Of a stretch of DNA of 64,000 bases, positions 13,732 to 49,600 are shown in pieces. This stretch comes from Tubulanus polymorphus (lineage: Eukaryota > Animalia > Nemertea). Made by a program: the position numbers and the translations under genes. The notes below the pieces were generated by a model. That model was not told the DNA's origin. It saw only the letters and a list, made by a program, of their open reading frames with translations, and did not search any database. Numbering within the stretch: position 1 is the stretch's first letter; each line of letters opens with the position of its first letter. The stretch is taken from the NCBI RefSeq assembly GCF_964204645.1, contig NC_134029.1, forward strand, positions 15,990,950 to 16,054,949, written 5' to 3'.

Positions 13732-13781
13732 AGATCTGGACGTCCTCGTCCAGAAAATAACTATATTACATAACAATTTAA

Positions 13782-14492: not shown

Positions 14493-14516
14493 TAAGCTAA
14501 AAAAAAATATAAATTA

Positions 14517-17500
14517 TCACATCTCAGTTATCCACCGGCGTGGCTTTCGTACTACCCGGCCCCCTCTCGTTGTCTGTTCGCTTGAGGTCACGAACTCTTC
14601 ATCTTGGACCGTATATTCTTCATTATTCTCGCTATCTTTAGTTGCCATATATGGCTTTAATCTGTTAAAATGTACTGTCTTTTCTACCCCTTCATCTGGT
14701 AATTGTATTCTATAAACTACATCATTTACTTCCCCCTTCACTATACAGGGTCCTATCCACCTATTCGATAATTTCTTCGATCGACCTTGTGGAACCATCG
14801 GCGTGAATAACCACACTAAATCATTGATTAAATATTTACTACTCTTCGTTTTGATATCGTAATTTTTCTTATTTCTTGTAGCTTTACGCCCGGTGTGAAC
14901 ACGTACTTCCTTGAATGCCTGTTCCAGACATTTACTCAAAGAATTGATGTACGCGGTATAAGATTTCTCTACATGAGAAGACGGTCCACCCACAGTTACA
15001 TCATTCGGCAAATCTACCTCGCTACCAAGCATCAAGTGATTAGGAGAATAACCCGTAACGTCATGTTTTGTGGCTCTGTACGCCATGGTTACATAAGGTA
15101 AGCATTCATCCCAAATCCTCTTGATCGTCCTGTATTGTCATTGCTAAACAATTTAGTAGGGTTCTATTGAATCGTTCAACCAATCCATCAGACTGTGGGT
15201 GATACGCGCAAGTTCTCATCTTCTTTATCTCCAATAATACACATAATTCTTTCATCAATCTAGATTGAAAGTTAGCACCTTGATCCGTATGAATTATTCT
15301 TGGCACCCCAAACCTCGATATAAATTCTTCAACTAATTTACACGGTACAGTTTCTGCGCTCTGATCTGGTAAAGCATAAGCTTCTACCCATTTCGTAAAA
15401 TAATCGCAAACTACTAAAATATAGGTCATTCCATTGCGTGAAGTCGGTAATGGACCCAAAATATCCATGGCTATTCTTTCCATTGGAAGACCCACTCTGT
15501 ATAACTGTAGGCTAGCTTTTGGTTTCACTGCTGGTGTCTTTCGAGCACCACATACAAAACAACACAAGCAGTGCATTCTTACATCTTGCCGGATGTGATG
15601 CCAATAAAAACGGCCGTGCACTCCTGTTAAAGTTTTACGAATCCCTAGATGTGCCGCAGTTATAGAGTTATGTAAACTGTGTAAAACTTCTTCTCTATAA
15701 TCTTTCGGTAATAATAGTAAAATGGATTCACTAAATCCTTCTCTCTGTTTACAGATATATAAAACATCATCTATAATCTTTAACTGTTGCCACCGAGCCC
15801 AATAAAACTTAGCATCTTCGCCTAATTCGCTCACATCAGACCATTCTGGTTTGCTATTGCTTTCTATATACGGAAATATCCACTTGAACTCCGGATCATT
15901 ACGTTGAGCTTGTGAGATATTCATAGATAGCCAATGGCCCTCTGGAGCGAATTGACTATACGTATATCGAGTTTCTGTTATATCTTGTTCCGATACTAAG
16001 TTATTTATATTACTCTCTCTCATTTCATTACAGGTACCCTCGTTCTTTCTTGTTATACGATCACATTGTATGCATTCTTGTCTGGATAATGCATCGGCAT
16101 TACCATGATTCTTGCCGGGCCTATGGATGATCTCAAAATCGTAAGTGCTTAATACGGATATCCACCTCGCTATCTGTCCCTCTGGTTCTTTAAATGACAT
16201 TAACCACTTTAAAGAAGCATGATCTGTTCTTAAAGTGAAACGCTTGCCCATCAAATAGTATTTAAAATGTTTAATGTACGATACTACAGCCAGCAATTCC
16301 CGTCTCGTTACACAATAATTTCTTTCAGGCTTGGCTAACGTACGACTTGCGTATGCTATCACTCTTTCTTTTCCATCCTGAATTTGCGACAAAACTGCTC
16401 CTATACCAGTATTGCTAGCATCTGTGTCTAGTATAAAAGATATGTTCGGGTCTGGATATGCCAATATAGGGGCTGTCGTTAATAATTCTTTGATCTTTGT
16501 AAAAGCCACGTCACACTCAGGTGACCACTTAAATTCTTTGCCTTTTTCTGTAAGCGTATATAAGGGTTTAGCTATTGAAGCGAACCCTTTACAAAACGAA
16601 CGATAATAGGAGGCTAATCCCATAAAAGAACGCACTCCCGACGGAGTTACTGGCTGAGGCCATTCTTTGATTGCTTTAACTTTCGCTTCTGTACAAGCAA
16701 TGCCTTGGTCTGACACTACATGCCCTAAAAATTCAATACTACTTTTGAAAAAATGACATTTCTTAGGCTTGAGTTTTAACCCCGCGGCTCGAAGGCGCTC
16801 CAAAACTTTCTCTAAATTCATCAAAGTTGATTCGAAATCTTTGCCAAATATAATGACATCATCTAGATAAACTAGGACTATGTCGTTCAATAAGCCTTCC
16901 AGTACTCTCTCCATAAGTCTCTCAAAAGTAGGACCACTATTTTTGAGACCCATAGGCATTTTTCTTAATTGATATAAACCTTGCGGTACTACAAAAGCAG
17001 TCTTTTCTTTGTCTTTAGGCGATACCGGAACTTGCCAGTAACCTGCCTGAAGATCGGCTCCACAGAAATACTTGGCTCCCGATAAAGACCTTATCGTATC
17101 ATCAATTCGAGGTAATGGATAGGAGTCTGATACTGTACATTCGTTCAAAGCCCGATAGTCTAGGCAAAATCTAAGGTTACCATCTTTTTTAGTCACCAAT
17201 ACTATTGGACTGCTCCATGGTGACTGACTATTCTCGATCACTTTAGAATCCATCATATCTTTCAAAAGTTTATCTAATTCTACTTGTTTCGCTAATGGTA
17301 AACGCCGAAATCGTTGTTTGATAGGCGGCGTTGAACCTGTATCTATAGTATGGTAAACTCCTTTCGCTTCCCCTAAATCCGTATCTGATTTCGCAAATAC
17401 ATCCGCGTATTTCACAATTGAATTTCGCACTTTTCTAGCTTGTTCCGGGCTCAAACCATCGCAACTACGCTTAATTAAGTCTTCTAGATATTCTAAGGAT

Positions 17501-18378
17501 TCTTTACTCTCTACTTGATTAACTTGATCTGATTTACCACTTGCCTCTTCTCGTGACCATATAGCTCTTACCCTTGATATTTTAGCCATAGAGGTATTTT
17601 TATACAATACTCTCGGCTGATCGCCTAAATTTACGATTCTAACTAATATCTGTGATTTTTCCGTGTCCACTACACTACGTGCTACACACATTTCAGGGCC
17701 TAACTTCCAATTGTGGTTCGATTCCACCATCGCCCACTTGCCTAAGTACTGTTTATCTTTCTCGTCGATATAGCCCGGCACCGTTATTTCAGATAAAGGC
17801 GGGACCTTAATTCTGTCTGTTGATCTAATTAATATTGCGTTCTCGTGAATAGGCGCTATTGGCTCCTCATGCATTTGATGACCTTGACAAGTCACCGTAC
17901 GCTGTTTTAAATGGATATGACAATCATATGCTGTCAGAAAATCCATTCCGAGAATTGCATCTTCTTTAATTTCGGCCACTATCACTTCCCAAGGTATATT
18001 TTTACCAAATAAGCCTAAGGGAATGACCGCTGTACCTCTCACTCTAATACTACTATGATCAGCTGCATAGAGTCGTATAGTTGATTGTTCTAATTTTATC
18101 TTGTGATTCTTTATAATTTCAGTATACAAACGATTACTGATGATTGTGTTATGAGCACCGGTATCTACCAGATACTTCACAGACACTCCGTGTACTACTG
18201 CCGAAAAATAAATCGCCGATTGTGATTTATCATTTTTGGACAGTACGTATACTTTAGAATCATCTTTCTTTTGTCTATTTTCAATCTCTAAATTCTTTGG
18301 GAGACTTGATTTATTTACTCTAGCCGAACCTACTCCCTTTTGAACGGCGCGGGAGAGTTTAAAGGCTGCTGTGTACAT
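14517..18378 (-). CDS. pol: Gypsy Pol (protease, RT, RNase H, integrase) with one frameshift near 15110
   Basis: LVDTGA; YLDD; TDAS...RRELLA...TDH; HHCC and DDE integrase (MDILGP, TDQG, VERFNR); overlaps gag at a TTTAAAC slippery-type site. Confidence 0.95.
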
Positions 18379-19376
18379 TGTCTTGCTATATGACCTTTCT
18401 GCTGGCAGTTATAACAAACTACGTTATTACTTGTTCTATATGGTGTTGACTGAGATTTATAATTATTTCTGCGACTATTGCACATACGTCGCACATCCTC
18501 TCTTAAACTCGCCATTTCTTTCTTAAGCTCAGAAACCTCATCTGAAACTATTGCTTGTCTTACATATGTTTCTCTTGGAAATCTATCATTCGATGATTCC
18601 ATCATATATATACTTTCTAAACGTAACGCGTATGAGATTAATTCATCAAAACTCTTTACATCTGATTGCCATAATCTCATTCTCATTTCACCATCGGACA
18701 ATGCTTCGATGAAATGCGTTCTGGCTAGCTTGTCTCTTTGCACCAAAGAGAATTCAGGATATGCTTGAGCACACAGAATTGTTACTGCTTGTCCCAATTC
18801 TTTTTAACTTTCGTGTCTCTTGCGTTTTCGATTGCGCAGTTCGGCCAGATGAACTTCCGCGAAATCCCCTGGACCAAATCTTGCGTCTAAAATCTTACAA
18901 ATTTCTTGATACTCTAATCTTTCCGTGTTAACCAGCTTAGTACAAACTAGTTGCCTAGCCGCGCCTCGTAATGAAGCGAATAAGAAGTCGGCTTTAACAT
19001 CGTTTGACCAGTGATTAAGTCTTGCTACTGTTTCAAACCCTAATCTGTAATCTTGCCATGATCCGTCACCTGAATAATTTTCTGGTTTTATCTTACAGAT
19101 CACGTTTGGTTCTACATTACGGGAACTGGAAGAACTTGTTCTACCTACATCCGCCGAACCACTACTTTGAGACCACGTTCCATCTTGACTCTCGCCAGAG
19201 AACGTTTGGCCTGTCGGATTACTAGTCATACTAGACCGATACGACGCGGACTTGCTAACAGGACCTACATCACCTTGAACTATTATAGACGTCTCGTTAT
19301 TCACAAGACCGTCTGGACTTGATAAATCTTCCGAACTTTTACTACGCATAATTCGAGCGCGCGATGCACGAGTCAC
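18330..19376 (-). CDS. gag: Gypsy Gag with one in-frame TAA at 18804-18806
   Basis: The two track ORFs share a frame; KPENYSG...W capsid-like motif; CCHC knuckle CYNCQQKGHIARQC. Confidence 0.9.
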
Positions 19377-19599
19377 AGGATAACTCTTTTTTTTTTGCTG
19401 ACTTGTACGACTTCGAATCTGTATAAAATACGAAGTCTAAATTGTATGTCCTTGTTTAAAACTTAACTACATATACTACTTAATGCAAAACTTATCGACT
19501 CAGGGAACAGGTCAGAATCTACTTAAATATGTATCTGTTATGTTGCGAGGCTATATGAAAAAAATTATTATCTCTCAATCTGGAATCTCAAAAAGAATC

Positions 19600-19617
19600 A
19601 TCCCACTTCTGACACCA
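19600..19617 (-). promoter_or_regulatory. Primer binding site, tRNA-Leu
   Basis: TGGTGTCAGAAGTGGGAT next to the 5' LTR, complementary to the tRNA-Leu 3' end ATCCCACTTCTGACACCA. Confidence 0.88.
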
Positions 19618-19619
19618 AT

Positions 19620-21213
19620 TGTAGCGGAAAACGGGGGCAACACGGTGCTACCCTCTCTCTTCTAATATGGCGGTCATTCTTCTGCTCATCAATTTGCTGC
19701 TCCAATCGTCATTCATCTAATATGTCAGGAGGTCTTGAAGGTAAAATCTAAAGTCTTCCAAGCCCGCTACGGAGTTCGCTTACGTCGAATGATTTCTGGT
19801 AGTGAAACCAAAAAGGGAAATAATATTTCACCGCAAGAGATGATCCTCATGAAAAACCGAGAGAGATAAATCTATAAAACAGCCACGATTTGAAAATTAT
19901 AGTCTGCTATGTTAAGATCGTGCATACCGAGCACGAATAGCCTATTTTCCGGTATACGGTTATCCTCAGCAACATGTATCTTACATGCCCGTAAGGCCCA
20001 CAGCATATAATTGAGTTGGCCACCCCAAATTATACCTGGATCTACCCTACATTCGACCGGTCTATAGAATAATCCCGTAACCCTCACTTCATACTAATGG
20101 CAGTCCAAAATCCTACCATAGATTCTCCCACCTATGGGCTGTAGGCTCAAAGTCCCTACTAAATAGTCCTCTGCTATTCGTCTCCACCATTTCAATCTTG
20201 TCAAAAAGCTGATATCATAAATAATTTTTCCTCAGTCCTTATTAAGGTTCTGACCATTCTCAATAGATAAGTCTGAAGCCGCATATAAAATACTGAATCT
20301 AATTATTAATTTATTAAAGTCATACTTTCTTATTATAATTCAAAGTGAATAAATATTAGGTTAATTCTACTATATAACTTATTCTTTTCTTCATCGAATC
20401 TACCGTCTAAGTATCTCGTAAAAGAACAAAAACCTATTACGTAAACGTATTATCATATAATTCGAATCGACAATCAAATCACGCAAATACGGTTCGAATA
20501 GTAAATTAATGGAAGTTCAGACAAATCCAAGCTGTCAATCACAATCATCGTTGAAAACGATAAAAAGGAGACGGCCGGCCTGACTGACTTATTAATTATC
20601 AATAGTGAACCGATTACATGAATGTCGGTCAGCCCGGTCAAAGACCGGAGCTGACCGACGAATCAACTGATGCTTACCAAGTCTGGCTGTCAACTGCCAA
20701 ACTGAAATGATGGGAGTCAATACGACCGGTAAAACAGTTAATATCGTTAACTAATGATAATCGGTTGACCCCAGCATCTCAGCATGACAACGGGCAGCTC
20801 AGCCTGGTAACCCCACCCCGCTAGCCCAACAACTGACATGACAACCGACACACCAGCTGATAGCGCCGCCACTCGCGTGCCACGGACACTACCAGCATGA
20901 TTTAAATTTACGGATACTTAGCCGGTTAAAAATACACATTTTAAGTAAGTGATCCCACCCCCTATACAACATATCAATACACAATATCTATATACAGTAT
21001 ACATCTTAAATTCAACAAAAGTAAATAGAGTAACATCTAACAAACCTATCCCGCCCCCCTCTAAATATTATTCCATTCAATTCAATTCAATACATTTGAA
21101 TAAATACATACAATTGCACAGACGCTACAATATCAATACACGAAAATTCTACATATTATTCAATTCAATTCGATTTAATACATTTTAATAAATACGATTG
21201 CACAAACGCTACA
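19620..21213 (-). repeat. Gypsy 5' LTR
   Basis: Direct repeat of 12124-13716, followed by the PBS on the minus strand. Confidence 0.96.
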
Positions 21214-22392
21214 AATGAACAATGCATTCTATGGTAAGACTTGTGAAAATATTAGAAATAGAAATGATATTGAGTTAGTTAGTAATGGTAAAAGAATTAG
21301 ACATTTACAAACATACCCTAAATTTATAGGTAACAGAATATTTGATGAAAATTTAGCTGCAGTTAAAATGAGAAGAACTTCTATGAAATTTAATAAACCA
21401 ATTTATGTTTGAGCATCAGTTTTAGAAATATCAAAATTACTAATGTATGAATTTTATTATAACGTATTACAACCTCATTTTGGAGAAAAACATATAGAAA
21501 TCTTATATCTAGATACGGATGCGTACATATTAAAGATAAAAACTAATAATCTAGCAAATGATTTAAAAACATTAAAACATCATTTTGATTTCAGTAATTA
21601 TCCTAAAGATCATGAATTGTTTAGCAATGATAATAAAAAAGTTCCTGGTAAATTCAAAGATGAATTAGGTGGTGAAGAAATGATAGAGTTCATTGGTATT
21701 AGATCTAAAATGTATTCATATAAAACTACTATGAAATTTAATAAACCAATTTATGTTTGAGCATCAGTTTTAGAAATATCAAAATTACTAATGTATGAAT
21801 TTTATTATAACGTATTACAACTCATTTTGGAGAAAAACATATAGAAATCTTATATCTAGATACGGATGCGTACATATTAAAGATAAAAACTAATAATCTA
21901 GCAAATGATTTAAAAACATTAAAACATCATTTTGATTTCAGTAATTATCCTAAAGATCATGAATTGTTTAGCAATGATAATAAAAAAGTTCCTGGTAAAT
22001 TCAAAGATGAATTAGGTGGTGAAGAAATGATAGAGTTCATTGGTATTAGATCTAAAATGTATTCATATAAAACTAAAGAACATGAAGCTAAAAAGTTAAA
22101 AGGAATTACCAAAAGTGTAGTAGAAAAGAATATTCATTTCAAAGATTACATCAATTGTATATTCAATGAAGAAGTTAGAAAACATAAGATGAGATGTTTA
22201 AGATCAGAAGATCACGAGATGTTTATTGAAGAAATTGAAAAGGTTAGTTTGAATCCATTTGAGGATAAAAGATATATTTTAGATGATGGTACACACACAG
22301 TCGCGTATGGTTGCAATTTAGATGAATATCTAAAGTTCAAAAGAGAAGAAACAAAAGAGAAGGAAATAATGAACAGGATTATAACGTGTTAA
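21214..22392 (+). pseudogene. polB: Protein-primed DNA polymerase B, 3' part, with a 348-bp tandem duplication
   Basis: MNNAFYGKT (motif B), YLDTDA (motif C), GKFKDE, RSKMYSY, KLKGI; 21381-21728 is repeated at 21729-22075. Confidence 0.93.
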
Positions 22393-27876: not shown

Positions 27877-29119
27877 ATGAGTGGGAGTTATATAAATCCT
27901 TCTAAGAATCATAGAATATCTAATGCTATTAAAGCAGAAAGATCACATCATATAATTACACACAATCCTTCTAATAGTATTCCTGATGAAACTTTATATG
28001 TTAGAATTCCTCGATTAACACAAAATACTTTTTATGTTCCAAATAGTATTTATTTATCAGCTGATATAAAAGTAACTGGTAATAGTAATAATTATGTTGT
28101 TGATAATGTTGGGAGATATTTGATTAAAAAATTAGCTGTAAAGATTGGGCCAGAAACCGTTTTCTCATTAGATAATTATGATTTATTTATGCATTACAAA
28201 GATTTATGGTTAACAAAAGAAAATAGAAATATTATGAAATTTCAAGGCATCCAATCAGAAAACCAAAATAAATTAAGATCAGAAGCCAATAATGCAGTAG
28301 TAACTAATGCTGTAGATAACTTAATAAAAAAGATTTATGGAAGCAGATATAAAATTCCATTAGGTTTTGAATTGATAAATAATAATGCGCCTTTATATAA
28401 ATACGCAATTCAAGAAGATATTATATTCGAAATAACATTTGCTCCTGTAAATGAAATTGTCTTATCTAGCGATAATGAAGATATGGGTTATAAATTATCG
28501 AATATATGTTTAGAATATGATACAGTAACTGATGAAAATATTGCTAGCATAATTCAAACTCAATACAACCAAGGATTTTCATTATTATATGATTATATTA
28601 TAAAATTTAAAACTGTAACTATTAATGCAAATGATGAAATAATTAATGAGAATATTAACTACCCAAGAAGATCTATTAAAGGTATATTAATAGTTTTTAC
28701 CATTGCAACATATTCTAATGGCGCAATAAAAGTTGATAATCATTATAATCCTGAAATATCAAAAGTAGATATAACTATCGAAGGAATAGCAAATAAAATA
28801 TTTTGTAATGAGAATGATAGATCAGTGGTCAGAAATTAGAAAACATTTTATGAATGAAAAAGTAAAATCATTTTAAAATTGTAATATTAATCAAATTGAT
28901 TATTACACCGGTAATAAATATGCATTATGGTTAGATTTTAGAACAACAGAGGATAATTCATTACATGGTTCTGGGAAAAAACTACAAAATACAAAAGATG
29001 GAATACAATTATTCATGAAAAAGAAAAAAGGAGGCAAAAATTTCAAAATGCGCGTTTATATTATATCTGACGCGCAATTAAATATTGTAAATTCACAATT
29101 AGATAGTATTATGTTGTAG
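27877..29119 (+). pseudogene. Putative major capsid protein, copy B (frameshift ~28805, stop ~28873)
   Basis: ORF 27877-28839 plus a continuation matching the C-terminus of 5599-6594 (YALWLDFRTTEDNSLHGSG). Confidence 0.72.
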
Positions 29120-30011: not shown

Positions 30012-30200
30012 AAAGAGCCTGATTATGAAAGTGATTGAAGTCCTAATTATTATCTCAAATAATAATATTGGTTGAAAATTGTATAAAATAATAGTTAATA
30101 AAAAAGGGTTTCAGGTATTAGGGTATCTAATAGGGTATCTAATACATAGGTAGGTATCAGGTATTAGGGTATCTAATACATAGGTATATAAATAGTTATT

Positions 30201-30808
30201 TTATAAACTTATATTCATATGGAAATTGGAGCCTCAGATGTAATTTTGAACCTTTATTATTCTTTAATTTATTCATATATTCATCATGTATTTCAGTAGG
30301 TATAATTTGATTTTCTTCCAATGATTGTTGCATAGATTTTCTATCTTTATTGTAGAATAAAACTAGAAATCTTATATTCTCCCTAAAGTCTTTAACGATT
30401 GAATTATATTTTTGATTTAAAACCCATGTTGTTATCCCAAAATGTCTCCCAGAGAAAGCTAGATAACATAACTCACTTTCTCTAACTTTTGAATCATGTA
30501 AATTTGCGCAATCATCTATAATGAATAATGTATTTGATCCATTATAAGTATCAATTGCTATTTTAATACATTTATCTAAATTTTCTTTTACTGTTTTAGG
30601 ATCTAATATAATAAACTTTTTTTATCTTAACGATTTCTCTATTATATGTTTTATTCATTTCATAAGTAGGGCAAAATAATATTATATTATCAAAATGATT
30701 CTTATAAATAGTTTCTAACAAATTTAATATGAAATGTGTTTTACCACAGTTTGTTACCCCAGTTATTAACATATTATGCGGTTCAAATATAAATAAATCT
30801 TTATTCAT
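30201..30808 (-). pseudogene. A32-like DNA packaging ATPase (frameshift ~30620)
   Basis: Walker A GVTNCGKT, Walker B LFIIDD, and SGRHFGITTWVLNQKY. Confidence 0.9.
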
Positions 30809-31891
30809 TTATTCTTTTAATTTTACTAGATAAAATCCATTCATTAAATTTATCATCGTATCCTTTATATTTCACCAAAGAATACCTTTTTCCTTTAAGA
30901 GTTTTTGTTTTCAATACTTTTTCTATTTTGTATTCTATTTCATCTGGGTTTGGTACAAGTGATAATTCTTGTTCATAGAAATAACTTAATATTTCTTCAT
31001 CTTTTAGATCATCTAGTTTATAAACAAATGGTTTAGTTAATATTATCTTTTTAATCTTGAATATTTCTTCTGTAAAATTAGGGGTATAACCTTTATAAAA
31101 TGTTTTTCTATATTTAGATATTCTGACATGTTGCCCAATTTTAAACTTAGGTTCTCCGAAATCATGTGTAACAAATGCTTCATATAAATTATTCCAAACT
31201 ATTTCTGAATTATCTTCTTTTCTAGCTTGTATAGGTTTCATATTTATAGAACTCTGTTTAGAATTATTATAACCTTTCACTAAATCATCTAATACATCGA
31301 TATATTTATATGTTTCATTAGCAGTAAAATATTTCCACATTCTAGTTTTCAATGTTTTATTAAATCTTTCTATAATAGATGCTTTTTTATCTGAATGTGT
31401 TGAAAATATTCTACATCGTTATCAGATAATAGTTTTTTTAAATTTTTATTATAAAGTTCCTTACCTTCATCAAATTGTATCTTATCTGGAATAGCTTCTT
31501 TAAATATTGATTTAAAAGCATTTGTCACTTCTATACCAGTTTTATTTTTGATTGGAATTGACCATGCGTATCTACTGAATATGTCTATAACATTCAATAT
31601 CCAGAAATATCCTTTGTTGTGTTCTTCTAAGTATTTCATGTCAATTAAATCTGCTTGCCATTGTTGATCGATATATGAAACCATAACTTTTCTTGTTAAA
31701 TAAGTTTTATCCATTTTCTTGTGGATTTGATATGTTGGTTGATTTTGTAACCATGATTTTAATTCACTATATTTTATATGACCATTTTCTTTATCAGATT
31801 TAATTTTATCCCATAATTCTGTAACGCTAGAATATGATACTTCACTTTCTGGGTTATAATATAACTCTCTTAAATATTGTTCTTTTTTCAT
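30801..31891 (-). pseudogene. Retroviral-like (rve) integrase with C-terminal chromodomain (frameshift ~31400)
   Basis: WQADLIDM, VIDIFSRYAW, FDEGKE, IERFIKTLK, and YKIEKVLK...VKYKGYDDKFNEWI. Confidence 0.92.
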
Positions 31892-31897
31892 CTTATT

Positions 31898-32895
31898 TTA
31901 ATCCATTAATAATAATTTAGATTTAGTTTCAATGACTTTATGATTTGATTTTTTTTCTGGTGTAATAGGTTTATTATCATTGGAATCATTATTATTTGAT
32001 TTGAATTTAGATTTATATATTACACCAGAGAATATAATAACTGTTACTAATCCAATTGTAATATATAAGTAATTATTACTTCCAACATTAGAAGAATTAG
32101 ATGGATTATTATTTGAATCAATATCAGATAAAGTCTGTGACTCATTTATATCAGTTAATTTCTTTTTCTTAGCTTTTTTTTTAATTCTGCAGATCTTTTT
32201 TCCAACTCCTTTGCCCACTGTACTTGTTTTTCAGATCTAGCATTTTCCTTAACGTCACTGTGTGGGTGCCGTACGGCAATACCATCACTCATTTATTTTA
32301 GTTAATTTTTGTTCTGGTTCATTTTCTGTTTCGCCGTTTGGTTGTAGTACGGCGCCATCTGTTTCGTTCTTACCTGATTTATATTCCATCGGTTTGATAT
32401 TCGAAAATGTTATGATACCAGTAGAAATTAATGTCATAACCGATCCTAATTGAAATGAAGCATATCCAACCCATTTTTGTAATTCAGTCATAACTAAATA
32501 GTCATTTTTCAAATCACTATATAATTTATTTTCATCATCAATTGACATTAATCGGTTACATACCTTAGAGTAACATTTGACAATACTATCTGAAATAGAA
32601 TCATTTATTCGAGCCAATCTTGCCTCTTCATAAATCTTAAAATATTTTATTACTTTATCGGGTTTCATAGAGTCTAGTTCTTGAAAAGTTATTATTTTTC
32701 CCAAGAAATCTTTAGATTTCCCTCCAGCAATTAATAATTCAAGATGGTGTTTACAATATAAGTAGTATAATCAATATTACAATTTACTTGAATATTATTT
32801 TCAATTTTGGTCGGAATATCCTTATTATCACTAATACCTAAATCATCTAATGTTTTTTCAATATCGGTATTATTCTTACTCGATTTCTTTGACAT
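31898..32895 (-). pseudogene. Two small viral genes with TM segments (31898-32292 and 32285-32895), frameshifted
   Basis: TAAATG starts; homologous to 42678-42926 and 42874-43390. Confidence 0.65.
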
Positions 32896-33538
32896 TTATA
32901 TTAGTGAAAAAAGCGAAAAAAATATTATAAGTATTATAAAATGATATTAGCATCTCTTTGGGTTAATACTAGCTTAGTTAAGTTAAAGAATTCTAGTATT
33001 AGTTATTGTTTTTTTTAGTATTTTTTATTTGTGATATAAAGTATTCCCTTTTTGAAAAGAAATAATAGATTTTTGAAAAAATATAATAGAATTCACTAGC
33101 TAGTTGAAGTTATTGTTTTTTTAATAATCTTTATTTAAATTAGGATTTAATATCTCACTACTATTGTCTATCTATGGGAGCGGTAACTATAACTGTCCAG
33201 ATAAGTCATTTCGGATCCTTGATATCAAATCTAGTTAATAATTATTGTTTTACTTGAATGTTGTATTACAGACGTTAATTATTACGTTGAAGATGGCAGC
33301 ACTGAGTGTGATACTGAAATGAAAATTTGAATTCAATATTCAATTAACATGGATAATTGATTACTAATTTAAAGATTAGATCATAATTAAGTTAAAAATC
33401 CATAATTCATTTATCAGTTTTCATTCCTATATTCTTTTCATTCGGAATAATTTATAATTTCAAATAACGTAAACACCGTTTATATTTACTTAGGTGTTTT
33501 AGCTAAGTATATAAGGCAATTCATTCCACCACTGGAGT

Positions 33539-33727
33539 GCCGCCGGGCCTGGCTTGCAGGGGCATTTCGAAAATGCACCTTCGTCCACCCTCCGTGGTTC
33601 TCCTTCAGTTTCGACTTTCGATCCTCCTTTCGGGGGTAAGGGGTTTATAGGAAATGCATTAGGCGCCTTAAATATAATGTGTTTCCTGTCAACCATTGAA
33701 GGAGAATTGGTGAGGTCGGGTGGTTTT
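33539..33727 (+). ncRNA. Candidate structured non-coding RNA inside the Polinton
   Basis: GC-rich island; nested helices 33585-33590/33718-33723, 33596-33609/33695-33708 and 33642-33661/33675-33694 with at least 6 G-U pairs only on the plus strand; TATATAA at 33508; TTTT at 33724. Confidence 0.55.
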
Positions 33728-33823
33728 GCTAAAACTTACATTAAAAACACTGAAATATTCCTTTTAATCACGAGAATCCTGTGTGTATCCTGTGTCTATG
33801 TACTGAGTTCTTATTATAAACGC

Positions 33824-34480
33824 TTAAGATTCAACGTATTTTTCATTATTTGGATCACTATTCCATAATTCAACAAATGTCTTTGCTTTAACCAGTTGAT
33901 CTAAATATAACTGTAAATCTAGTTTATGAGATTTAATTATGTTTTCCTTCTTTTCTAAAGGTCTTAAATTTCTCCAGCTCCATATTAGCTTCTTATTATA
34001 ATCATCACTCATGTCAAATTTAGAAATCGGCAACACATGATCAATATGAAAGTATTCACCATAATTATCTATATTCATTTTATCGTCGAATTGATATATT
34101 ATCCATGATTTTAAGAATTCATCTGAACAACCCAACAAATTAGATAGTGTTTTTGAATGTGTTTCTTTGTTGAATAATTGTGTTAATCTAGATCATAAGC
34201 ATTGTTTCAATCTAAAATTAAGATCTGTTTTATATCTTTCTCTCATATATTCTGTCATATAATCATTATAAGCTTCCCTATTATCTTCTCGATATTGTTT
34301 GGCATATAGTTCAATACAAGTTTTACAGCAATATTGAAAACCATCTTTGCTAATCTTACGCTTATTAAATTCTGTTATAGCTAATTTACCTAATTCACAT
34401 TTAGAACACTTCTTGTAGTATATGTTTATAACGCCGGTGTTATTTGTAATATTGATAGTTTGTGGTTGTTCTGGTTCCAT
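33824..34480 (-). pseudogene. NCLDV-type HNH (endonuclease VII-like) nuclease with N-terminal Cys4 zinc ribbon; one in-frame TGA at 34193
   Basis: KKCSKC...DGFQYCCKTC, then LGCS...NYG...FHIDHVLP...NLRPL...EN..K; the two track ORFs share a frame. Confidence 0.8.
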
Positions 34481-36298
34481 TTTAATATCAATTTTTTTTA
34501 CTAAATTGATTTTAGTTATTCATTTACATGTTATTCATGTATTATATATATGAATTATTATATATTATTATATCAATTTATATGTTATTCATATATATTT
34601 TATTCATGTATATAAATATTTTAAGAGTAATAGGGGTAATGGGCTTTCAGATTAAAGGTTGAAAGGGCGAGTGAGTAAAAAATGAAAAAATATGAAAATA
34701 ACAATAATTTCTATTTGAATTAGGCGGTTCCTGAACTTCGCTGAAAAAGCTGAATCACTGAAACGCTGAAACGCTGAAATAAAAACGCTGAAATTTCAGG
34801 GAATTTCCGAAAAACGCCGAAATTTCAGGGAATTCCCGAAAAACGCTGAAATCGTGCTAGGTACCAACAATACACGTTTTGAAATATTTTCCGGGCCGGT
34901 GTCCGCTGCCGAGTCCTGAACCGTGTTTTAGTCTCTACCTTCGGTTACAGAGACATGCATGGACAGTATGTGTGGAGTATACTTCTAGAGGGCCACTTGT
35001 TGGACAAATTAATTCGCTTGAAATCCGGATTTTTAATGCATACAGGCAGCATAATGAGGAAAACCCATTCACAAACCGTGCAAGCTACCTTAAACACTAT
35101 GCTCAATATTCCCTGCAAGACGCAAAATATCTTATTTGAACGTTCATGTATAAAACATGGAGCAACTTTTCTTTTGTCAACACGTTGATGGGCGACGAAC
35201 TATGTCACTATGGTATTCTCTGAAGGAGGTAAATTAAATTTGACAGCTAGTTATATAAATGATGCAGCTTTTGGACAAAAGGGATCTAACTAAATTTCTT
35301 TTTAATTCACTGTGGAATGGAATGGAATGGAATGGATTGACGCCAATGGCATGCAGTAGGCCCCTACATATGGGTCATACTGATTAGCGTCAACCAATTA
35401 ATCTAAATCGGGCTAAGCATTCAACAACTGTGAATAATTTATTTGCTGTGGCGTGATAATAATTAGTTTTTTTGAAGAAATGACATACCAACTGTTAGAA
35501 AAATGTACCGATTCTTATTTTTAGACTACTACTGAATCTATAAAAGGAGGAGTCATAGACAAAGTTGATTTGCTTAGCTGGTGACACTTCTTGTCAAGTA
35601 CATCATCTCAAGTACTGGGTGTTTTGTAAGTTTAATTTCAGTATTTATTTACTAAGTGCTGTTCTCTCGGACCTCAGTGCTTTCAAACTAGGCCCACCCC
35701 ATAGGCTATATAGTCCAGGGTGCATTAGCCACTATTCTTTTATATCCGACTAAAATGCACCTTTTTCTATTTTTAGATTCAGGCTTAGAATGTGCAAATT
35801 TTTTGAGATACTGAGAAATCAGATGGCACCAGTAAACTTCAACTGCGAAATTTGCAGCAGGATAGCTGAACGACACAATTTTTGAAAATAAAATGGCTAT
35901 TCGAATGCTATTTCAATAATAACTTGATTCAACCAGAGAGAAATAAGTCAATTGCGGATGTACAGTACACCCACTTTTCTTCCCTGTTTCCTGGTACCAA
36001 ATTTTTAGTCTTAAGCTAAGCGATATTCTAAGGTATACTAGTGGATTTCATTAGAATATGAAGCAATGGAACCAGAATTCTAGCCAGAGTTAAGCGAACT
36101 ATTGATTCTGATATAATGTAAGAACTGATTTCCTTTGTATACTCTTGCAGAATGTGTTATGTTTTATTTCAAGCTGTTAAATAATATAGTTAGACAAATG
36201 TCCAATTGATCTTAGGAAGAGAGTTCAAATATCCGAATAACCATAGAAGCGATAACATTAAAAACCTCATTTTCTAATGAGTAAATACAGTTTATTAA

Positions 36299-36335
36299 CA
36301 CGAACGTTTTCGGGATCATATCCCCTCATCAGGTG
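36299..36335 (-). ncRNA. Minimal type I hammerhead ribozyme in the Penelope pLTR
   Basis: Reverse complement of 38509-38545. Confidence 0.8.
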
Positions 36336-36448
36336 AAATACAAGTGAATCAAATGATTAAACTACAGGTTTATATACAACATAAGTTACAAAATTACAAG
36401 TGCTAAATTCTAAGCTAATTACAAACCAAGTATTTAATTACAAACTAA

Positions 36449-37557
36449 TTATTTGAATACATTTAGGATAAAGGATGAGCCGTTTTGAAATAATTGTTGA
36501 TTTAAAGAGGGTCGTTGCGCTTTAATAAACAGGGCCTCCCTAATTTTACAGTCGAGATCAGATGAACCTTTGTCTAGAATTTTGAATTTGTTGTTACTGA
36601 ATTCCTGATCACAAGTGTGACAAATTGCGAGATGTTGTCCAATCGCAGAAGTCTTTGATCTGTGTTCCTTAATCCTGATGGCCAAATGTCGTTTAGTTTT
36701 CCCAATATAGGAAGTGTTTATATCACATAAACAATTAAATTTATATATGACTTTAGCCTTCAGCGATTTAGGGGTAGCACATTTCAAAGAGAAAAAATTC
36801 TTAATTTTGGTCGTAGTGAATGCACATTTCAAGTTGATTTCAAAATTCCTTTTAAATAGATATTTTAATTTTCGGGCAAATAGGATTGACGGGTTACCAA
36901 TATACGGTAATGAAATGAATAGATCAATTCCATCTTCAACAGGTTTCGGTTGAGGTTCTGAGTTCTGTTTTGATTTCAAAAATCTATTAATACATTGATC
37001 GATGACATGAATAGGAAACGCATTAGATTTAAACAGATTTTTCAAGAAATTGATTTCTTCTGAAAAGATGGTCCAATCACTGCAAATATTGTAGGCACGA
37101 AAAAGCATGGTATTGATGAGTCCTATTTTCCATTTATACGGACACATGGCGTTGAAGTTCAAAAGTAGGCCTGTGTTGGAAGCTTTCCTGTACACTCGAG
37201 ATATAAAGTCACTACCGGTTTCTAACGGAATTTGTATTTCGGTATCGAGAAAAGGTAATAGATTAGGACCTAGTTCAAAAGTGAATTTAAGGTTAGAATG
37301 GAGGCGATTCAATTCTTCAAAAAATAGTCTATAACTGGATACATTTCGAAATATGCCGAAAATATCGTCCACGTATCTCAGGTATAATGTCGGTTTGTAA
37401 TTAGTTTTGGAGAGGAGCAAGTTTTCAAAATGGGCAAGACAAAAGTTCGCTAAGGTTGGGCCTAAGGGGCTGCCCATGGTGACCCCATCAACTTGCTTGA
37501 AAATACGATCATTGTACATAAACAAACCCGAAGTTGCGATTTTAAGTAATTCCTTAA
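36449..37557 (-). CDS. Penelope RT (C-terminal half) plus GIY-YIG endonuclease, 5'-truncated
   Basis: GVTMGSPLGP, LRYVDD, PFLD, VYRK; VIY...YIGKTKRHLAIRIKEH...EALFI...LN. Confidence 0.92.
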
Positions 37558-38395
37558 ATTCACTTTTGAACTAGGTCCTAATCTATTACCTTTTCTCGAT
37601 ACCGAAATACAAATTCCGTTAGAAACCGGTAGTGACTTTATATCTCGAGTGTACAGGAAAGCTTCCAACACAGGCCTACTTTTGAACTTCAACGCCATGT
37701 GTCCGTATAAATGGAAAATAGGACTCATCAATACCATGCTTTTTCGTGCCTACAATATTTGCAGTGATTGGACCATCTTTTCAGAAGAAATCAATTTCTT
37801 GAAAAATCTGTTTAAATCTAATGCGTTTCCTATTCATGTCATCGATCAATGTATTAATAGATTTTTGAAATCAAAACAGAACTCAGAACCTCAACCGAAA
37901 CCTGTTGAAGATGGAATTGATCTATTCATTTCATTACCGTATATTGGTAACCCGTCAATCCTATTTGCCCGAAAATTAAAATATCTATTTAAAAGGAATT
38001 TTGAAATCAACTTGAAATGTGCATTCACTACGACCAAAATTAAGAATTTTTTCTCTTTGAAATGTGCTACCCCTAAATCGCTGAAGGCTAAAGTCATATA
38101 TAAATTTAATTGTTTATGTGATATAAACACTTCCTATATTGGGAAAACTAAACGACATTTGGCCATCAGGATTAAGGAACACAGATCAAAGACTTCTGCG
38201 ATTGGACAACATCTCGCAATTTGTCACACTTGTGATCAGGAATTCAGTAACAACAAATTCAAAATTCTAGACAAAGGTTCATCTGATCTCGACTGTAAAA
38301 TTAGGGAGGCCCTGTTTATTAAAGCGCAACGACCCTCTTTAAATCAACAATTATTTCAAAACGGCTCATCCTTTATCCTAAATGTATTCAAATAA
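37552..38395 (+). CDS. Inverted duplicate of the Penelope thumb and GIY-YIG region
   Basis: Protein identical to the C-terminal part of the minus-strand copy. Confidence 0.88.
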
Positions 38396-38508
38396 TTAGT
38401 TTGTAATTAAATACTTGGTTTGTAATTAGCTTAGAATTTAGCACTTGTAATTTTGTAACTTATGTTGTATATAAACCTGTAGTTTAATCATTTGATTCAC
38501 TTGTATTT

Positions 38509-38545
38509 CACCTGATGAGGGGATATGATCCCGAAAACGTTCGTG
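38509..38545 (+). ncRNA. Minimal type I hammerhead ribozyme in the Penelope pLTR
   Basis: cac-CTGATGA-g-gggat/atg/atccc-GAAA-acgt-TC-gtg; palindromic stem III (aacgtt); TATATAAA at 38468 and AATAAA at 38548. Confidence 0.82.
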
Positions 38546-39599
38546 TTAATAAACTGTATTTACTCATTAGAAAATGAGGTTTTTAATGTTATCGCTTCTA
38601 TGGTTATTCAAATGTCCAATTATTGGATCTTTCTTGTTGACTCGTTTAATTTTGTGAGTTAAGAGTTCCAGTCAATCCACAATGTGCAGTGCCTAGCCTT
38701 CATCTACACTAAAGCCAAGCCTGTGTATGGGAAAAAAATATCGTTCGACTCCTATAGGCCAGACACATCAAAGCATGCAATACATTGCAGATAGTAGTCT
38801 CCGGCAAGTCGAAAGAGAAAGTAAACCAGGTTTTACCCCGTACCCTACCCGGGAACAAAGACACTTAAAGATTCCTTCCTCCTTGTAGAAATTGTAGAAA
38901 TATGGCACCCAATTGTAGCAATGCTAAGTACAGTATACTATGACGGTTGAACCTTTATTAACGAATTTCAATGACACCGAAAATAGAATCAAAATAATCA
39001 TTAGTTCCATGCTAGCACTTAATTTGGGTTATCAGGTTCAGCCTAACTGTACTTTCATTCAGCTACTACTTGTATGAGACTTGGCAATGATAAGTTGCAA
39101 GAAATCACCAAACATAAGAAAAAATATTGTGAATTAATATTACTGTGATTAAGAATTTATTCAAATGAAGTGATAACTTCATTGTTAGATCGTACCGGTA
39201 TATGCACATAAAACTATGGCAAAAAAACACATCTAACAATCCACGCAATCGATCAAGTCGATCAGAACGACGACCTTAAGGCATGTCTCTGTAACCGAAG
39301 GTAGAGCATAAAACACGGTTCAGGACTCGTCAGCGGACACCGGCCCGGAAAAAATTTCAAAACGTGTATTGTCGGTACCTAGCACGATTTCAGCGTTTTT
39401 CGGGAATTCCCTGAAATTTCGGCGTTTTTCGGAAATTCCCTGAAATTTCAGCGTTTTTATTTCAGCGTTTCAGCTTTTCAGCGTTTCAGCTTTTTCAGCG
39501 AAGTTCAGGAACCGTGAATTAGGAGTGAAACTCATAAAAAATGAAAAATAAATTCGAGCGTGCGAGAATTATTAATAACACTTTTCAAATAATACTTTT

Positions 39600-42677: not shown

Positions 42678-43392
42678 TTACCAACTACACCCAATCAAAA
42701 TGAATACAATTACAAATCCAGCTGTAAAATATAGATATTTATCAAATATTCTATTATTAGAAGTAGTAGAAATAACAATATTTTCACCATTTTTATTAAC
42801 ATTTTTATTACTTATTTTTTCTTTTACAGCTTTTTTATATTCTTGTGATTTAATTCCTAATTGCCGAGACCATTCAATTTGTTTCGGAGTTCTCGGTTTT
42901 TCTTTCACTTCTTCCACCTTGCTCATTTATTAAAGAAATATTTTTACTTTCAATACTTGAAAATGTTATAACTCCAGTTGATAATAATGTCATAAATCCA
43001 CCTAATTGAAATGATAAATATCCAATCCATTTATTTAATTCAGTCATAACTAGAAAATCATTTTTTAAATCGGAATATAATCTATTTTCATCTTCAATCG
43101 GTAGCATATATTTACATAATTTACTATAACCTTTTACTACATTTTCTGATATCTCATCATTAGTTCTAGCTATTCTCGCAGTTTCGTAAATCTTAAATAA
43201 TCTAATAATTTCATCTGATTTCATTGTATCTAATTCATTATAAGTTAAATTTTTACCGATAAAATTTTTACATTTTCCAGATGCTATTAATATTTCTAAA
43301 TGATGTTTGCAATAAAGATAATATTCATAACTATTATTTGTTGTAACATTATTTAAAGCACCATCATCTGGAGTTAATTTTGTTTCTGTTAT
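42678..43392 (-). pseudogene. Two small Polinton genes, copy C; the upstream one is cut by the BEL LTR
   Basis: Homologous to 31898-32895. Confidence 0.7.
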
Positions 43393-45664: not shown

Positions 45665-46619
45665 GCTTTGTTACCTTACCGCTGTTTCATATACAATCCA
45701 TATAATATCGTTCACCTCACTGAGATCTACAAATAGCCCGCGTGTTTTTTCACGAATCATCGTTACAAAAGCGCTGTCGGGCCGTAAACATCGAAAATTT
45801 AGCCCCATTCAATGGGGCGACATGTTTTTCGAGTCGTCATCCCGAAATCAACCCGCAGGCCGACTGTCACTTCGATTATCAATTCAAGTATAAATGAACT
45901 AATTTATTGCCGCAGACTTCACATTCAGTAAACTAAACACGCCGAAGAGATATAGCGGAGAAAAGCTGTTATGTCGACGAGGTATCAAAATAAAAGAATA
46001 TATTACTTTATTCGGCCGCGGGCTTCAACCTCTATATCAATACCATCAATACTCTATATTTCCTACAGTACATACCGATCATTGTCAAATGCACAAGGTA
46101 TTTACTAAATACAAGTATATAACACATAATCCTTTCCGTATGCTGGACTCACACTTGACATTCGGAGTAAGCGTTCGCTGTGGGGGAAAGGGATCGTTCG
46201 CTGTGTCGCTCGAAGTGTTTATCGAGTTTGACGCGGCTTTAGGCCTACCGGTACTGAGCTTCATTGTATCAAACAAACACAGTACAATTGTTGCGTTTAT
46301 TAACGGACTCATTGGATTGAACTTCAAAACAAAATTTACGATATTTAGGTGGGTTGTTAAATTCAATAGGCCTACGACCAATCTGTCCAGATGTTAGGCC
46401 TACACATATACAAAGGCCTACATAGGCTAGTAGCCTCTACTAGGTTAAGCGTTCGCTGTGGGGGAAAGGAGATCGTTCGCTGTGTCGCTTGAAGTGTTTA
46501 TCGAGTTTTACGCGACCTTAAGGCTTTAGTATGGTGGCTGATAAGGGCCATGCGTAAAAAAACACGTATATGCAAATGAGGGCGGCATTATGACAAAACG
46601 ACAAAACTAAAATAACGCG

Positions 46620-49600
46620 ACAAAACAATAATTTTGGTTTTATCGCCCGCGACAATTCATTATTTTGGTTTTATCGCCCGCGATAATTCATTATTTCGGT
46701 TTTATCGCCCGCGACAATTCATTATTTTGGTTTTATCGCCCGCGACAATTCATTATTTTGGTTTTATCGCCCGCGACAATTCATTATTTTGGTTTTATCG
46801 CCCGCGACAATTCATTAGTTTGGTTTTGTCACCCGCGACAATTCATTATTTTGGTTTTATCGCCCGCGACAATTCATTAGTTTGGTTTTGTCACCCGCGA
46901 CAATTCAAGATTTTGGTTTTTCTGCCGCGACAATTCATTTTTTGGATTTGTCGCCCACGACAATACAATATTTTGGTTTTATCGCCAGCGACAATTCATT
47001 ATTTTGGTTTTATCGCCCGCGACAATTCATTATTTTGGTTTTATTACCCGCGACAATTCATAAGTTTGGTTTTGTCACCCGCGACAAATCAATATTTTGG
47101 TTTTGTCGCCCATGACAATTCAATATTTTGGTTTTTATCGCCCGCGACAATTCATTATTTTGGTTTTATCGCCCGCGACAATTCATTATTTTGGTTTTAT
47201 CGCCGGCGACAATTTTTTTTTTGTCGCGGCTTTATCGCCCGCGACAATTCATTATTTTGGTTTTATCGCCCGCAACAATTCATTAGTTTGGTTTTGTCAC
47301 CCGCGACAAATCAATATTTTGGTTTTGTCGCCCATGACAGTTCAATATTTTGGTTTTTATCGCCTGCGACAATTCAATATTTTGGTTTTATCGCCCGCGA
47401 TAATTCATTATTTTGGTTTTGTCGCCTGAGAAAATTCATTATTTTTGTTTTATCGCCCGCGACAATTCATTATTACGGTTTTATCGCCCGCGACAATTCA
47501 TTATTACGGTTTTGTCGCCTGCGACAATTCATTATTTTGGTTTTATCGCCCGCGACAATTCATTATTTTGGTTTTATCGCCCGCGACAATTCATTATTTT
47601 GGTTTTATCGCCCGCGACAATTCATTATTTTGGTTTTATCGCCCGCGACAATTCATTATTTTGGTTTTGTCGCCTCGACAATTCTTTTTTTGGTTTTGTC
47701 GCCCGCGACAATTCATTAGTTTGGTTTTGTCGCCCGCGACAATTCAATATTTTGGTTTTGTCGACCGCGACAATTCAATATTTTGGTTTTGTCGACCGCG
47801 ACAATTCAATATTTTGGTTTTGTCGCCGGCGACAATTCATTATTTTGGTTTTGTCGCCCGCGACAATCAATATTTTGGTTTTATCGCCGGCGACAATTCA
47901 TTATTTTGGTTTTGTCGCCTGGACAATTCACCATTTTGGTTTTGTCGCCTGCGACAATTCATTATTTTGGTTTTGTGGCCCCGACAATTCTTTTTTTGGT
48001 TTTGTCGCCCACGACAATTCATTAGTTTGGTTTTGTCGCCCGCGACAATCAATATTTTGGTTTTATCGCCCACGACAATTCATTACTTTGGTTTTATCTC
48101 CAGCGACAATTCATTATTTTGGTTTTGTCGCCCACGACAATTCATTTTTTTGGTTTTGTCGCCCGAGACAATTCATTATTTTGGTTTTATCGCCCGCGAT
48201 AATTCATTATTTTGGTTTTATCGCCCGCGACAATTCATTAGTTTGGTTTTGTCACCCGCGACAATTCAAGATTTTGGTTTTTCTGCCGCGACAATTCATT
48301 TTTTGGATTTGTCGCCCACGACAATACAATATTTTGGTTTTATCGCCAGCGACAATTCATTATTTTGGTTTTATCGCCCGCTACAATTCATTATTTTGGT
48401 TTTATCGCCCGCGACAATTCATTAATTTGGTTTTGTCACCCGCGACAATACAATATTTTGGTTTTATCACCAGCGACAATTCATTATTTTGGTTTTATTG
48501 CCCGCGACAATTCATTATTTTGGTTTTATCGCCCGCGACAATTCATTAATTTGGTTTTGTCACCCGCGACAAAACAATAATTTTGGTTTTGTCGCCCGCG
48601 ACAATTCATTATTTTGGTTTTATCGCCCGCAACAATTCATTAGTTTGGTTTTGTCACCCGTGACAATTCAAGATTTTGGTTTTTCTGCCGCGACAATTCA
48701 TTTTTTGGATTTGTCGCCCACGACAATACAATATTTTGGTTTTATCGCCAGCGACAATTCATTATTTTTGTTTTATCGCCCGCGACAATTCATTATTTTG
48801 GTTTTATCGCCTGCGACAATTCATTAATTTGGTTTTGTCACCCGCGACAAAACAATAATTTTGGTTTTGTCGCCCGCGACAATTCATTATTTTGGTTTTA
48901 TCGCCCGCGACAATTCATTATTTTGGTTTTATCGCCCGCGACAATTCATAAGTTTGGTTTTGTCACCCGCCACAAATCAATATTTTGGTTTTGTCGCCCA
49001 TGACAATTCAATATTTTGGTTTTTATCGCCCGCGACAATTCATTATTTTGGTTTTATCGCCCGCGACAATTCATTATTTTGGTTTTATCGCCCGCGAAAA
49101 TTTTTTTTTTGTCGCGGCTTTATCGCCCGCGACAATTCATTATTTTGGTTTTATCGCCCGCAACAATTCATTAGTTTGGTTTTGTCGCCCGCGACAATTC
49201 AAGATTTTGGTTTTTCTGCTGCGACAATTCATTATTTTGGTTTTGTCGCCTGGACAATTCACCATTTTGGTTTTGTCGCCCGCGGCAATTCATTATTTTG
49301 GTTTTGTCGCCCCGACAATTCTTTTTTTGGTTTTGTCGCCCGCGACAATTCATTAGTTTGGTTTTATAGCCCACGACAATTCATTTCTTTGGTTTTGTCG
49401 CCCGCGACAATTCATTATTTTGGTTTTATCGCCCGCGACAATTCATTATTTTGGTTTTATAGCCCACGACAATTCATTACTTTGGTTTTATCTCCAGCGA
49501 CAATTCATTAGTTTTGTCGCCTCGACAATTCTTTTTTTGGTTTTGTCGCCCGCGACAATTCATTAGTTTGGTTTTGTCGCCCGCGACAATTCAATATTTT

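Follow-up and report, generated by a model that had tools for sequence, protein, structure and literature searches.

A candidate Pol III small-RNA gene with a probable external-type promoter in an animal Polinton

Introduction

Polintons, which are related to the adenoviruses, occur widely in animal genomes. The viral Pol III RNAs surveyed in the accessible text of two sources use either type 2 promoters or type 2 promoters combined with upstream elements (PMC4378190, PMC8223928). In adenovirus VA-I, as far as the available portion of PMC6599070 goes, the 22-bp apical stem contains four wobble pairs and stays below the PKR threshold of about 33-35 bp, and the wobbles help the RNA to escape OAS1. 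The bocavirus RNA BocaSR, although similar to VA RNA, is no inhibitor of PKR (PMC11194592, accessible part). The combination of a PSE and a TATA box selects Pol III in humans (PMC1790723, accessible part), and PSEs are described as taxon-specific in the text available of PMC9841428.

With regard to RNAs of Polintons themselves, an Rfam screen of 8300 Polinton-like and virophage genomes reported tRNAs, rRNAs, group I introns, miRNAs, snRNAs and snoRNAs (PMC12220804); in its main text, supplementary tables aside, this screen reports known RNA families only. In a term search of the main texts of PMC8502044, PMC11131425 and PMC10748475, neither non-coding RNA nor VA RNA nor Pol III came up. In line with the preliminary description of the locus studied here, no Polinton RNA of this kind was found in the published literature covered, to which subscription papers and Repbase annotations do not belong.

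Here, we analyzed a stretch of 64,000 nt of DNA (the window, to which all coordinates refer), in which a GC-rich island facing an HNH nuclease gene had been proposed to encode a structured small RNA. Judged from its sequence, the island is a real structured unit that bears the marks of a type 3 Pol III gene, is carried by a Polinton, is previously undescribed and does not act as a guide of the HNH nuclease.

Results

The carrier Polinton

Several Polinton copies lie in the window among other repeats. All hallmarks of the carrier were found, namely polB, an rve integrase, an A32 ATPase, a double-jelly-roll capsid and a terminal inverted repeat (TIR), with a single end of the copy being placed (Table 1). 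The capsid gene, assigned by its Atlas feature score, gave no match in a Pfam search, and PF03175 was detected in the window's other copy of the polB gene. Two metagenome contigs, L202 and L203, represent one sister Polinton that is 75-83% identical over the shared genes and covers 6-7 kb only. As a separate observation, the polB of this Polinton family (9430-11031 in the window; 337-4062 in L203) contains an inserted endonuclease VII-like domain (PF02945).

Near the carrier lie a gag gene with DUF1759 and a reverse transcriptase that bears a GIY-YIG domain. Bel/Pao elements are in large part restricted to animals, and the host is therefore probably an animal. Other repeats of the window comprise a Penelope-like reverse transcriptase/GIY-YIG element (36235-38609), whose two 1058-nt arms are 100% inverted copies; a gypsy-type LTR element (12124-21213) located between two polB pieces, with LTRs 99-100% identical and a 1090-aa pol ORF; and long arrays of 31-bp tandem repeats (46500-64000) interspersed with a dispersed repeat family.

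Table 1. Features of the island, its module and the carrier Polinton, in window coordinates; offsets are relative to the predicted start at 33539.
Feature	Coordinates	Strand	Remarks
Octamer-like sites	33319..33332	+	two sites with one mismatch each, at -220 and -214; weak possible DSE
PSE-like element	33473..33490	+	CACC core begins at -65
TATA box (TATATAA)	33508..33514	+	-31 to -25; same offsets as chicken 7SK
TATA-to-start spacer	33515..33538	+	letters vary, length constant
Predicted small RNA	33539..33727	+	189 nt in the window copy; about 290 nt in most sister copies
Closing helix, 5' strand	33539..33561	+	33539-33548 pairs with 33715-33724; 33549-33561 pairs with bases missing from the window copy
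Short hairpin, 6 bp	33562..33576	+	from the fold
Long arm	33585..33715	+	21-position helix 33589-33609/33695-33715, then mini hairpins and 20-bp terminal hairpin
Two mini hairpins of long arm	33611..33636	+	least conserved part in reads
Terminal hairpin of long arm, 20 bp	33642..33694	+	from the fold
Probable deletion point	33716..33717	+	window copy lacks about 100 bases of most sister copies; from loose and joint reads
T4 run, Pol III terminator-like	33724..33727	+	sole 4-T run in 33539-33760 (window copy)
600-bp module	33231..33830		holds promoter and RNA; many HNH-bearing sister copies lack it
HNH nuclease gene	33824..34480	-	group I intron homing-endonuclease lineage; in-frame stop at 34193-34195
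polB remnant, protein-primed	21413..22392	+	81-83% nt identity to L203 (1241-aa ORF, C-terminal part)
Major capsid protein (part)	27877..28839	+	resembles double-jelly-roll capsid clusters (Atlas feature score 0.97)
A32-like packaging ATPase (part)	30196..30621	-	PF04665
rve integrase with chromodomain	30801..31891	-	two frames; PF00665, PF00385
Hypothetical Polinton gene	32285..32770	-	ORF on the opposite side of the module from HNH; relatives at 42953-43354 and in L203
Terminal inverted repeat (TIR)	34725..34958		97% to 39281-39514

Fold of the island and strand bias

The island stands out within an AT-rich element, as described before, with a GC content of 0.48-0.56 per 50 nt compared with 0.14-0.38 in the preceding 800 nt. 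All of the nested helices named earlier were located on the plus strand, and the proposed strand preference was borne out by folding against shuffled sequences. Over 33490-33745, the plus strand reached -93.7 kcal/mol (z -4.41; equaled by 0 of 200 shuffles) and the minus strand -72.9 kcal/mol (z -3.03), while for the predicted transcript (33539-33727) the z-scores were -5.40 and -2.10, respectively. The one-sided excess of G-U pairs was likewise found: six helices in fixed register contained 51 Watson-Crick and 11 G·U pairs, no A·C and 4 other combinations, with a binomial p of 0.0005 for G·U against A·C in helices that had been picked on the plus-strand fold. The fold of the island is real and strand-specific. 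Sliding windows of 200 nt that cut the island scored only -1.3 to -2.3, with some other AT-rich windows reaching -3.0 to -3.5, and the fold signal therefore depends on long-range helices.

Two elements of the earlier model had to be revised. In the RNA fold, gggtgg pairs with 33540-33545 (pair probability 0.97-0.98) instead of with ccaccc, a pairing that appears in the DNA-parameter fold only. The possible 8-bp outer clamp gttttagc/gctaaaac is no part of the RNA, because one of its arms lies upstream of the TATA box and the other downstream of the T run, that is, outside any transcript from the TATATAA promoter.

Promoter, start and terminator

The transcription start was set at G33539, where the closing helix begins, and is itself a prediction from that helix. 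The TATATAA upstream of the folded unit and the TTTT that follows the closing helix, both noted in the preliminary description, are in place. In chicken 7SK, the TATA box occupies -31 to -25 and the PSE -67 to -46 (PMC2235858, accessible part). At the corresponding distance, the PSE-like stretch of the window matches 8 of the 15 specified letters of the human H1 PSE at -66, a score also reached at two other AT-rich offsets. Its 5' core is the one with which the human H1 and U6 PSEs begin (PMC1790723, accessible part); its 3' half fails the human motifs, and the host PSE may differ. A [CT]ACC[AG]T core at this distance occurs at 1 of the 282 TATA boxes of the window, for a pattern that was defined after the site had been seen.

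In the genomic reads, no place varied out of 23 in 33492-33514 versus 7 out of 24 in the spacer (Fisher p 0.009), and the spacer showed no indel, both among 40 of the 51 variants. One more diverged contig, read by eye, has the same PSE core at the same distance within one base. The two octamer-like sites further upstream stand against a background of 0.28 per 100 nt; most reads differ there at one place, and few copies share the stretch. Internal boxes were poor, the best A box having two mismatches at +7 and the best B box one at +78 when scored against the consensus with no chance control. A scan for bacterial promoters was uninformative (4 found, 3.2 expected).

Taken from these sequence features, the promoter looks external and is likely of type 3, with a PSE and a TATA box at U6/7SK spacing, unlike that of VA RNA, and the anatomy as a whole is very probably that of a type 3 Pol III small-RNA gene.

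Sister copies and the family form of the RNA

Depth was taken from one genomic run of 1934 million letters. It amounted to about 470-750 over the island, about 800-1300 over the HNH gene and up to 3000 near the terminal repeat, which implies tens to hundreds of copies for an animal genome of 0.2-2 Gb, with episomal DNA as an alternative source of depth.

At 33716, 77% of the reads seen from the left and 91% of those seen from the right leave the window sequence (253 loose reads before 33715 and 236+85 behind 33716/33715, with 46 joint reads). One contig gives the size of the extra part as 364-203-61 = 100 bases, and thus an RNA of about 290 nt. The transcript of about 190 nt ending at 33724-33727 that had been expected fits the window copy and not the family. 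By eye, and in the register of the outer helix, the end of the extra part forms 12 of 13 possible pairs with 33549-33561 (chance about 1e-4); the start of the extra part pairs with 33583-33588, and its two ends pair together in a further helix of about 12 bp. Since the extra bases pair with stretches that are left unpaired in the window, loss from the window copy is the simpler reading; this copy is likely decaying and derived by deletion from an RNA of roughly 290 nt. The pairing of the extra bases is an independent confirmation of the predicted architecture. The family form is modeled as a four-way junction consisting of a closing helix of about 23 bp, a 6-bp hairpin, the branched long arm and a fourth arm, whose ends were seen and whose middle lies outside the sequence seen.

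About a third of the reads belong to a second subfamily. Over 104 nt, this subfamily shows about 12 letter differences and 6 gaps, and it diverges beyond 33621 (159 loose ends behind this position), yet it keeps the TATA region. In the three long helices, a pair is kept or gained at 8 of the 12 variable places (neutral expectation 0.39, p 0.049) and at 5 of 6 in the main subfamily (p 0.036); these p values are marginal and derive from unphased reads and 40 of the 51 variants. Three of the four pair-breaking variants fall in the second subfamily, with the partner strand outside the data, and four changes at 4-7% frequency break the mini hairpins. No double-sided compensatory change appeared in the unphased read tables.

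A non-coding island is favored, because a 1-base deletion lies inside it in 124 of 685 reads. An open stretch of 117 codons over the island on the plus strand was considered and rejected: it contains no ATG before the middle of the island, and indels in the reads break its frame.

A Pol III precursor, from which the 20-bp terminal hairpin would be cut into a microRNA or siRNA regulating host or viral messages, would be compatible with a hairpin that is nearly perfect and in which 4 of 40 stem places but 4 of 13 loop places are variable (p 0.09); Pol III pre-miRNAs are known from BLV, foamy viruses and MHV68 (PMC4378190, accessible part). The hairpin is nevertheless short for a pre-miRNA and embedded in the four-way junction, and the second subfamily, to which about a third of the reads belong, diverges there, which makes this reading very unlikely.

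The 600-bp module and the facing HNH gene

Promoter and RNA are contained in a 600-bp module, inside which the stop codon of the window's HNH gene also falls. A direct joint between 33230 and 33831 is spanned by 239 reads (125 starts), so that many HNH copies are devoid of the whole module, and the same joint occurs in contigs of two other read sets. The module is accessory: it is dispensable, and missing beside HNH in some family members. In the copies without it, the 3' flank of HNH is the stretch 33171-33227, 57 nt that are GC-richer, form a small hairpin and have a depth of about 930, far above the flanks. We presume a resemblance of this stretch to the LSU rRNA helix-69 loop or a homing-endonuclease site; searched against Rfam, it gave no rRNA match.

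Depth also resolves the surroundings of the island. It falls from 570 at 33740 to 221 at 33820, meaning that only part of the island-bearing copies can be tied to the HNH flank, and a minority of them share what lies upstream of 33342 (59-123 vs 480-750).

The HNH proteins measure 218-256 aa and contain a zinc-finger-like region and HNH only, an organization different from the IscB/IsrB type with RuvC and PLMP. Searches of the protein against Pfam (E 0.01) and PDB gave no match, and no RuvC or IscB family. At the in-frame stop codon of the window copy, most reads differ from the window. A SECIS element for this in-frame TGA was rejected, since the fold favors the other strand and most reads differ at the codon. 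In L202 and L203, HNH is intact and 55% identical to that of the window. L203 has the same gene order downstream of HNH with a 299-nt AT-rich gap in place of the island, and neither contig contains a GC-rich island, no 100-nt bin exceeding GC 0.35 over the 6-7 kb covered. HNH has moved within the family, as it directly follows polB in L203 (4079-4849) but lies beside the terminal repeat in the window.

Relatives of HNH were collected at 85 loci, some of them duplicates, 79 of which had enough flank. A group I S motif was present within 450 nt of the HNH stop in 21 of these 79 loci, and R followed by S in 13. Group I introns (Rfam RF00028) were detected in 8 of 16 loci chosen for non-coding flanks, and the exon beside the one tested intron is a giant-virus capsid gene. 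Because the relatives sit in group I introns, HNH belongs to a protein-directed homing lineage; capture of HNH domains from group I introns by Polintons has been suggested before (PMC10748475, accessible part). In the window itself, a search for a group I core in 32900-34960 on both strands yielded no R within two mismatches, no S, P or Q within one, and no Rfam match. Shared sequence downstream of HNH relatives, considered as an HNH-associated RNA, turned out to be group I intron 3' halves and capsid exons. Separately, the giant-virus contigs L119, L120, L123, L126, L130, L132, L137 and L149 each contain one to five clustered group I introns, several of which bear this HNH family and lie in or near capsid genes.

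These data bear on the proposal that the island encodes an RNA with which the facing nuclease works, as partner or guide, after the manner of HEARO/IscB systems. Adjacency and convergent orientation would suit it, as would the linkage of at least part of the copies to the 3' flank of HNH (depth of 221 at 33820). Co-occurrence with HNH was nonetheless inconsistent across the reads and L202/L203: the 239 module-less reads carry HNH, L203 has HNH with no island, and the relatives reside in group I introns. In addition, no RuvC or IscB family was found, and both RNA ends are base-paired, so there is no free variable guide. The partnership is largely refuted and extremely improbable.

Presence and absence of the 600-bp module and the high copy number could also reflect a selfish element, such as an external-promoter SINE-like element, a MITE or a Helitron piece, or else an untranscribed ssDNA cis element. 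On the minus strand, the module starts with TC and ends with CTAG in a Helitron-like manner; a GC-rich subterminal hairpin is missing, and the CTAG end has the lowest depth. The fold with ssDNA parameters is strong as well (z -4.48), and an 8-bp inverted repeat flanks the unit. However, among the loose ends tabulated, no read break coincides with the RNA 5' end or the 8-bp repeat, and reads run on beyond the T run and, on the other side, for about 200 bases upstream of the RNA; neither a target-site duplication nor a poly(A) tail was found, and a DNA element needs no PSE, TATA box and T4 run in register. A selfish or ssDNA element is thus quite unlikely. The preliminary description had named an unrelated MITE/SINE or a coding exon as readings that would overturn it; element-end breaks are absent among the loose ends tabulated, and indels break the frame in the reads.

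Searches for relatives

In agreement with the earlier expectation of novelty, a search of the window copy, which lacks about 100 bases, against Rfam returned no family at E up to 10. This includes 7SK, RNase P/MRP, SRP, telomerase, vault and Y RNA, of which diverged members could escape a search with the shortened copy. ARAGORN gave no hit in the island. Long island patterns were absent (a 23-mer in metagenomes, 0; a 24-mer in genomes, 0). Shorter seeds matched (a 14-mer in viral contigs at least 118 of about 500 loci; a 19-mer in genomes, 5; a TATA-gap-start pattern, 63), and none of 271 seed-match loci extended past the seed by blastn or nhmmer. The island was found neither in the other Polinton copies of the window nor in L202/L203, and a covariance model built from the window copy alone recovered only itself across the window, L202 and L203. 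Viral contigs queried with the neighboring gene, the capsid and polB gave no related Polinton.

The main rival to a viral RNA is a captured host type 3 Pol III gene, or a very diverged RNA of the 7SK, RNase MRP/P, telomerase or vault type, traveling as a Polinton passenger. Its promoter is host-type; Polinton-like viruses with captured tRNA, 5S and snRNA genes have been reported (PMC12220804). The module is missing in many sister copies and in L203 and replaces the HNH tail, which suggests acquisition, and the sharing of sequence upstream of 33342 by a minority of copies points the same way. Host origin is kept in play because only part of the island-bearing copies can be tied to the HNH flank. 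7SK ends in a 3' hairpin. The closing helix of the island, in contrast, runs straight into the T run, with no such hairpin. The absence of an Rfam match, in a search made with the copy that is 100 bases short, also speaks against capture, as do the two diverged subfamilies, both of which keep the promoter, something that a neutral passenger would not need to do. On balance, we regard a captured host gene as unlikely.

Discussion

We favor, at a probability of roughly 0.4, the reading that the island is a Polinton-borne Pol III RNA acting as a decoy for dsRNA sensors or the RNAi machinery, VA-like without being a VA RNA. Worded for the whole family, and held at the same level, it would be an independently arisen and abundant family of Pol III RNAs of about 290 nt in animal Polintons, with a hijacked SNAPc/TATA promoter, that blunts dsRNA sensing or RNAi. 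Of the earlier proposal of a Polinton-encoded small RNA, a structured, likely Pol III gene on the plus strand inside a Polinton has stood, and the partnership with HNH has not.

The proposed mechanism would comprise three steps. SNAPc and TBP would bind the PSE and TATA box, and Pol III would start at G33539 and stop in the T run, a step that we hold to be highly probable. The RNA would then fold into its closing helix of about 23 bp, the short hairpin, the branched arm with the 20-bp hairpin, and a further arm that the window copy has lost. Finally, wobble-rich helices of 20-23 bp, three of which are predicted in the island RNA with 3-6 G·U pairs each, would bind Dicer, exportin-5 and PKR/OAS/RIG-I-like sensors. 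As these helices would be below activating length, as in VA-I, viral gene expression would be favored. Given the first step, we put the third at even odds; it is drawn from anatomy and analogy, and the dispensability of the module and the BocaSR precedent speak against it.

A Pol III RNA of the same anatomy could instead serve as a viral nuclear scaffold or tether for replication or transcription, in the manner of BocaSR or EBER2 (PMC11194592, accessible part), and the island does lie about 1 kb from the terminal repeat. Against this, the window copy has no complementarity to the terminal repeat or to window Polinton DNA (best 15-20 nt, E 0.08), and the abundance of module-less family members indicates that the RNA is not essential for spread; such a role appears quite improbable.

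If the decoy reading is true, Polintons would have in this island their first dedicated viral ncRNA, and its promoter would be the sole purely external PSE plus TATA promoter among viral Pol III RNAs in the literature compared. A structured RNA that is present in many copies and brings its own promoter offers a direct handle on how Polintons deal with the antiviral RNA sensing of the host, and other Polintons can be screened for the signature of PSE, TATA box and T run. A viral decoy would amount to convergence on the VA RNA strategy via another promoter class and would argue for an active infectious phase; a captured host gene would still represent an undescribed animal Pol III RNA family.

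In its promoter layout and spacing, the island agrees with host type 3 genes (U6, 7SK, RNase P H1, RNase MRP and hymenopteran telomerase RNA), and 7SK, H1 and MRP fall in the size range of its RNA. Unlike these genes, it is multi-copy, lies inside a Polinton and has no Rfam match. EBER1 and EBER2 of EBV, of about 170 nt, are also structured viral Pol III RNAs with an upstream TATA-like box, to which the island has no Rfam match. Their promoters are of type 2 with upstream ATF, Sp1 and ETAB elements (PMC8223928, accessible part), whereas that of the island would be external. BocaSR shares with the predicted RNA of the island its origin as a Pol III RNA from a non-coding stretch near the genome end of a small DNA virus, but is 140 nt long, uses an intragenic type II promoter and is essential for replication (PMC11194592, accessible part), while the island module is dispensable in many copies. 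The HSURs of herpesvirus saimiri are, as predicted for the RNA of the island, viral RNAs on host snRNA-type promoters (PMC4378190, accessible part); these are Pol II RNAs of the Sm class with a 3' box, and the TATA box and T4 run of the island point to Pol III. The HEARO/OMEGA (IscB) RNAs are structured RNAs that likewise adjoin an HNH gene, but the island is on the opposite strand, has its own eukaryotic promoter, shows no obligate co-occurrence and faces an HNH of the group I homing lineage.

Of the VA/EBER-like RNA proposed at the outset, a likely Pol III RNA is retained and membership of the VA family is not, given the lack of a sequence or Rfam match to VA, the external promoter and the length. 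VA RNA has an internal type 2 promoter (PMC8223928, accessible part), about 160 nt and a three-domain fold, as against the external PSE and TATA box, about 290 nt and four-way junction predicted for the island. Common to the island and to VA RNA I/II are a terminal stem followed by a U run and wobble-rich helices of about 20-23 bp (PMC6599070, accessible part), and adenovirus and Polintons are of one broad viral lineage.
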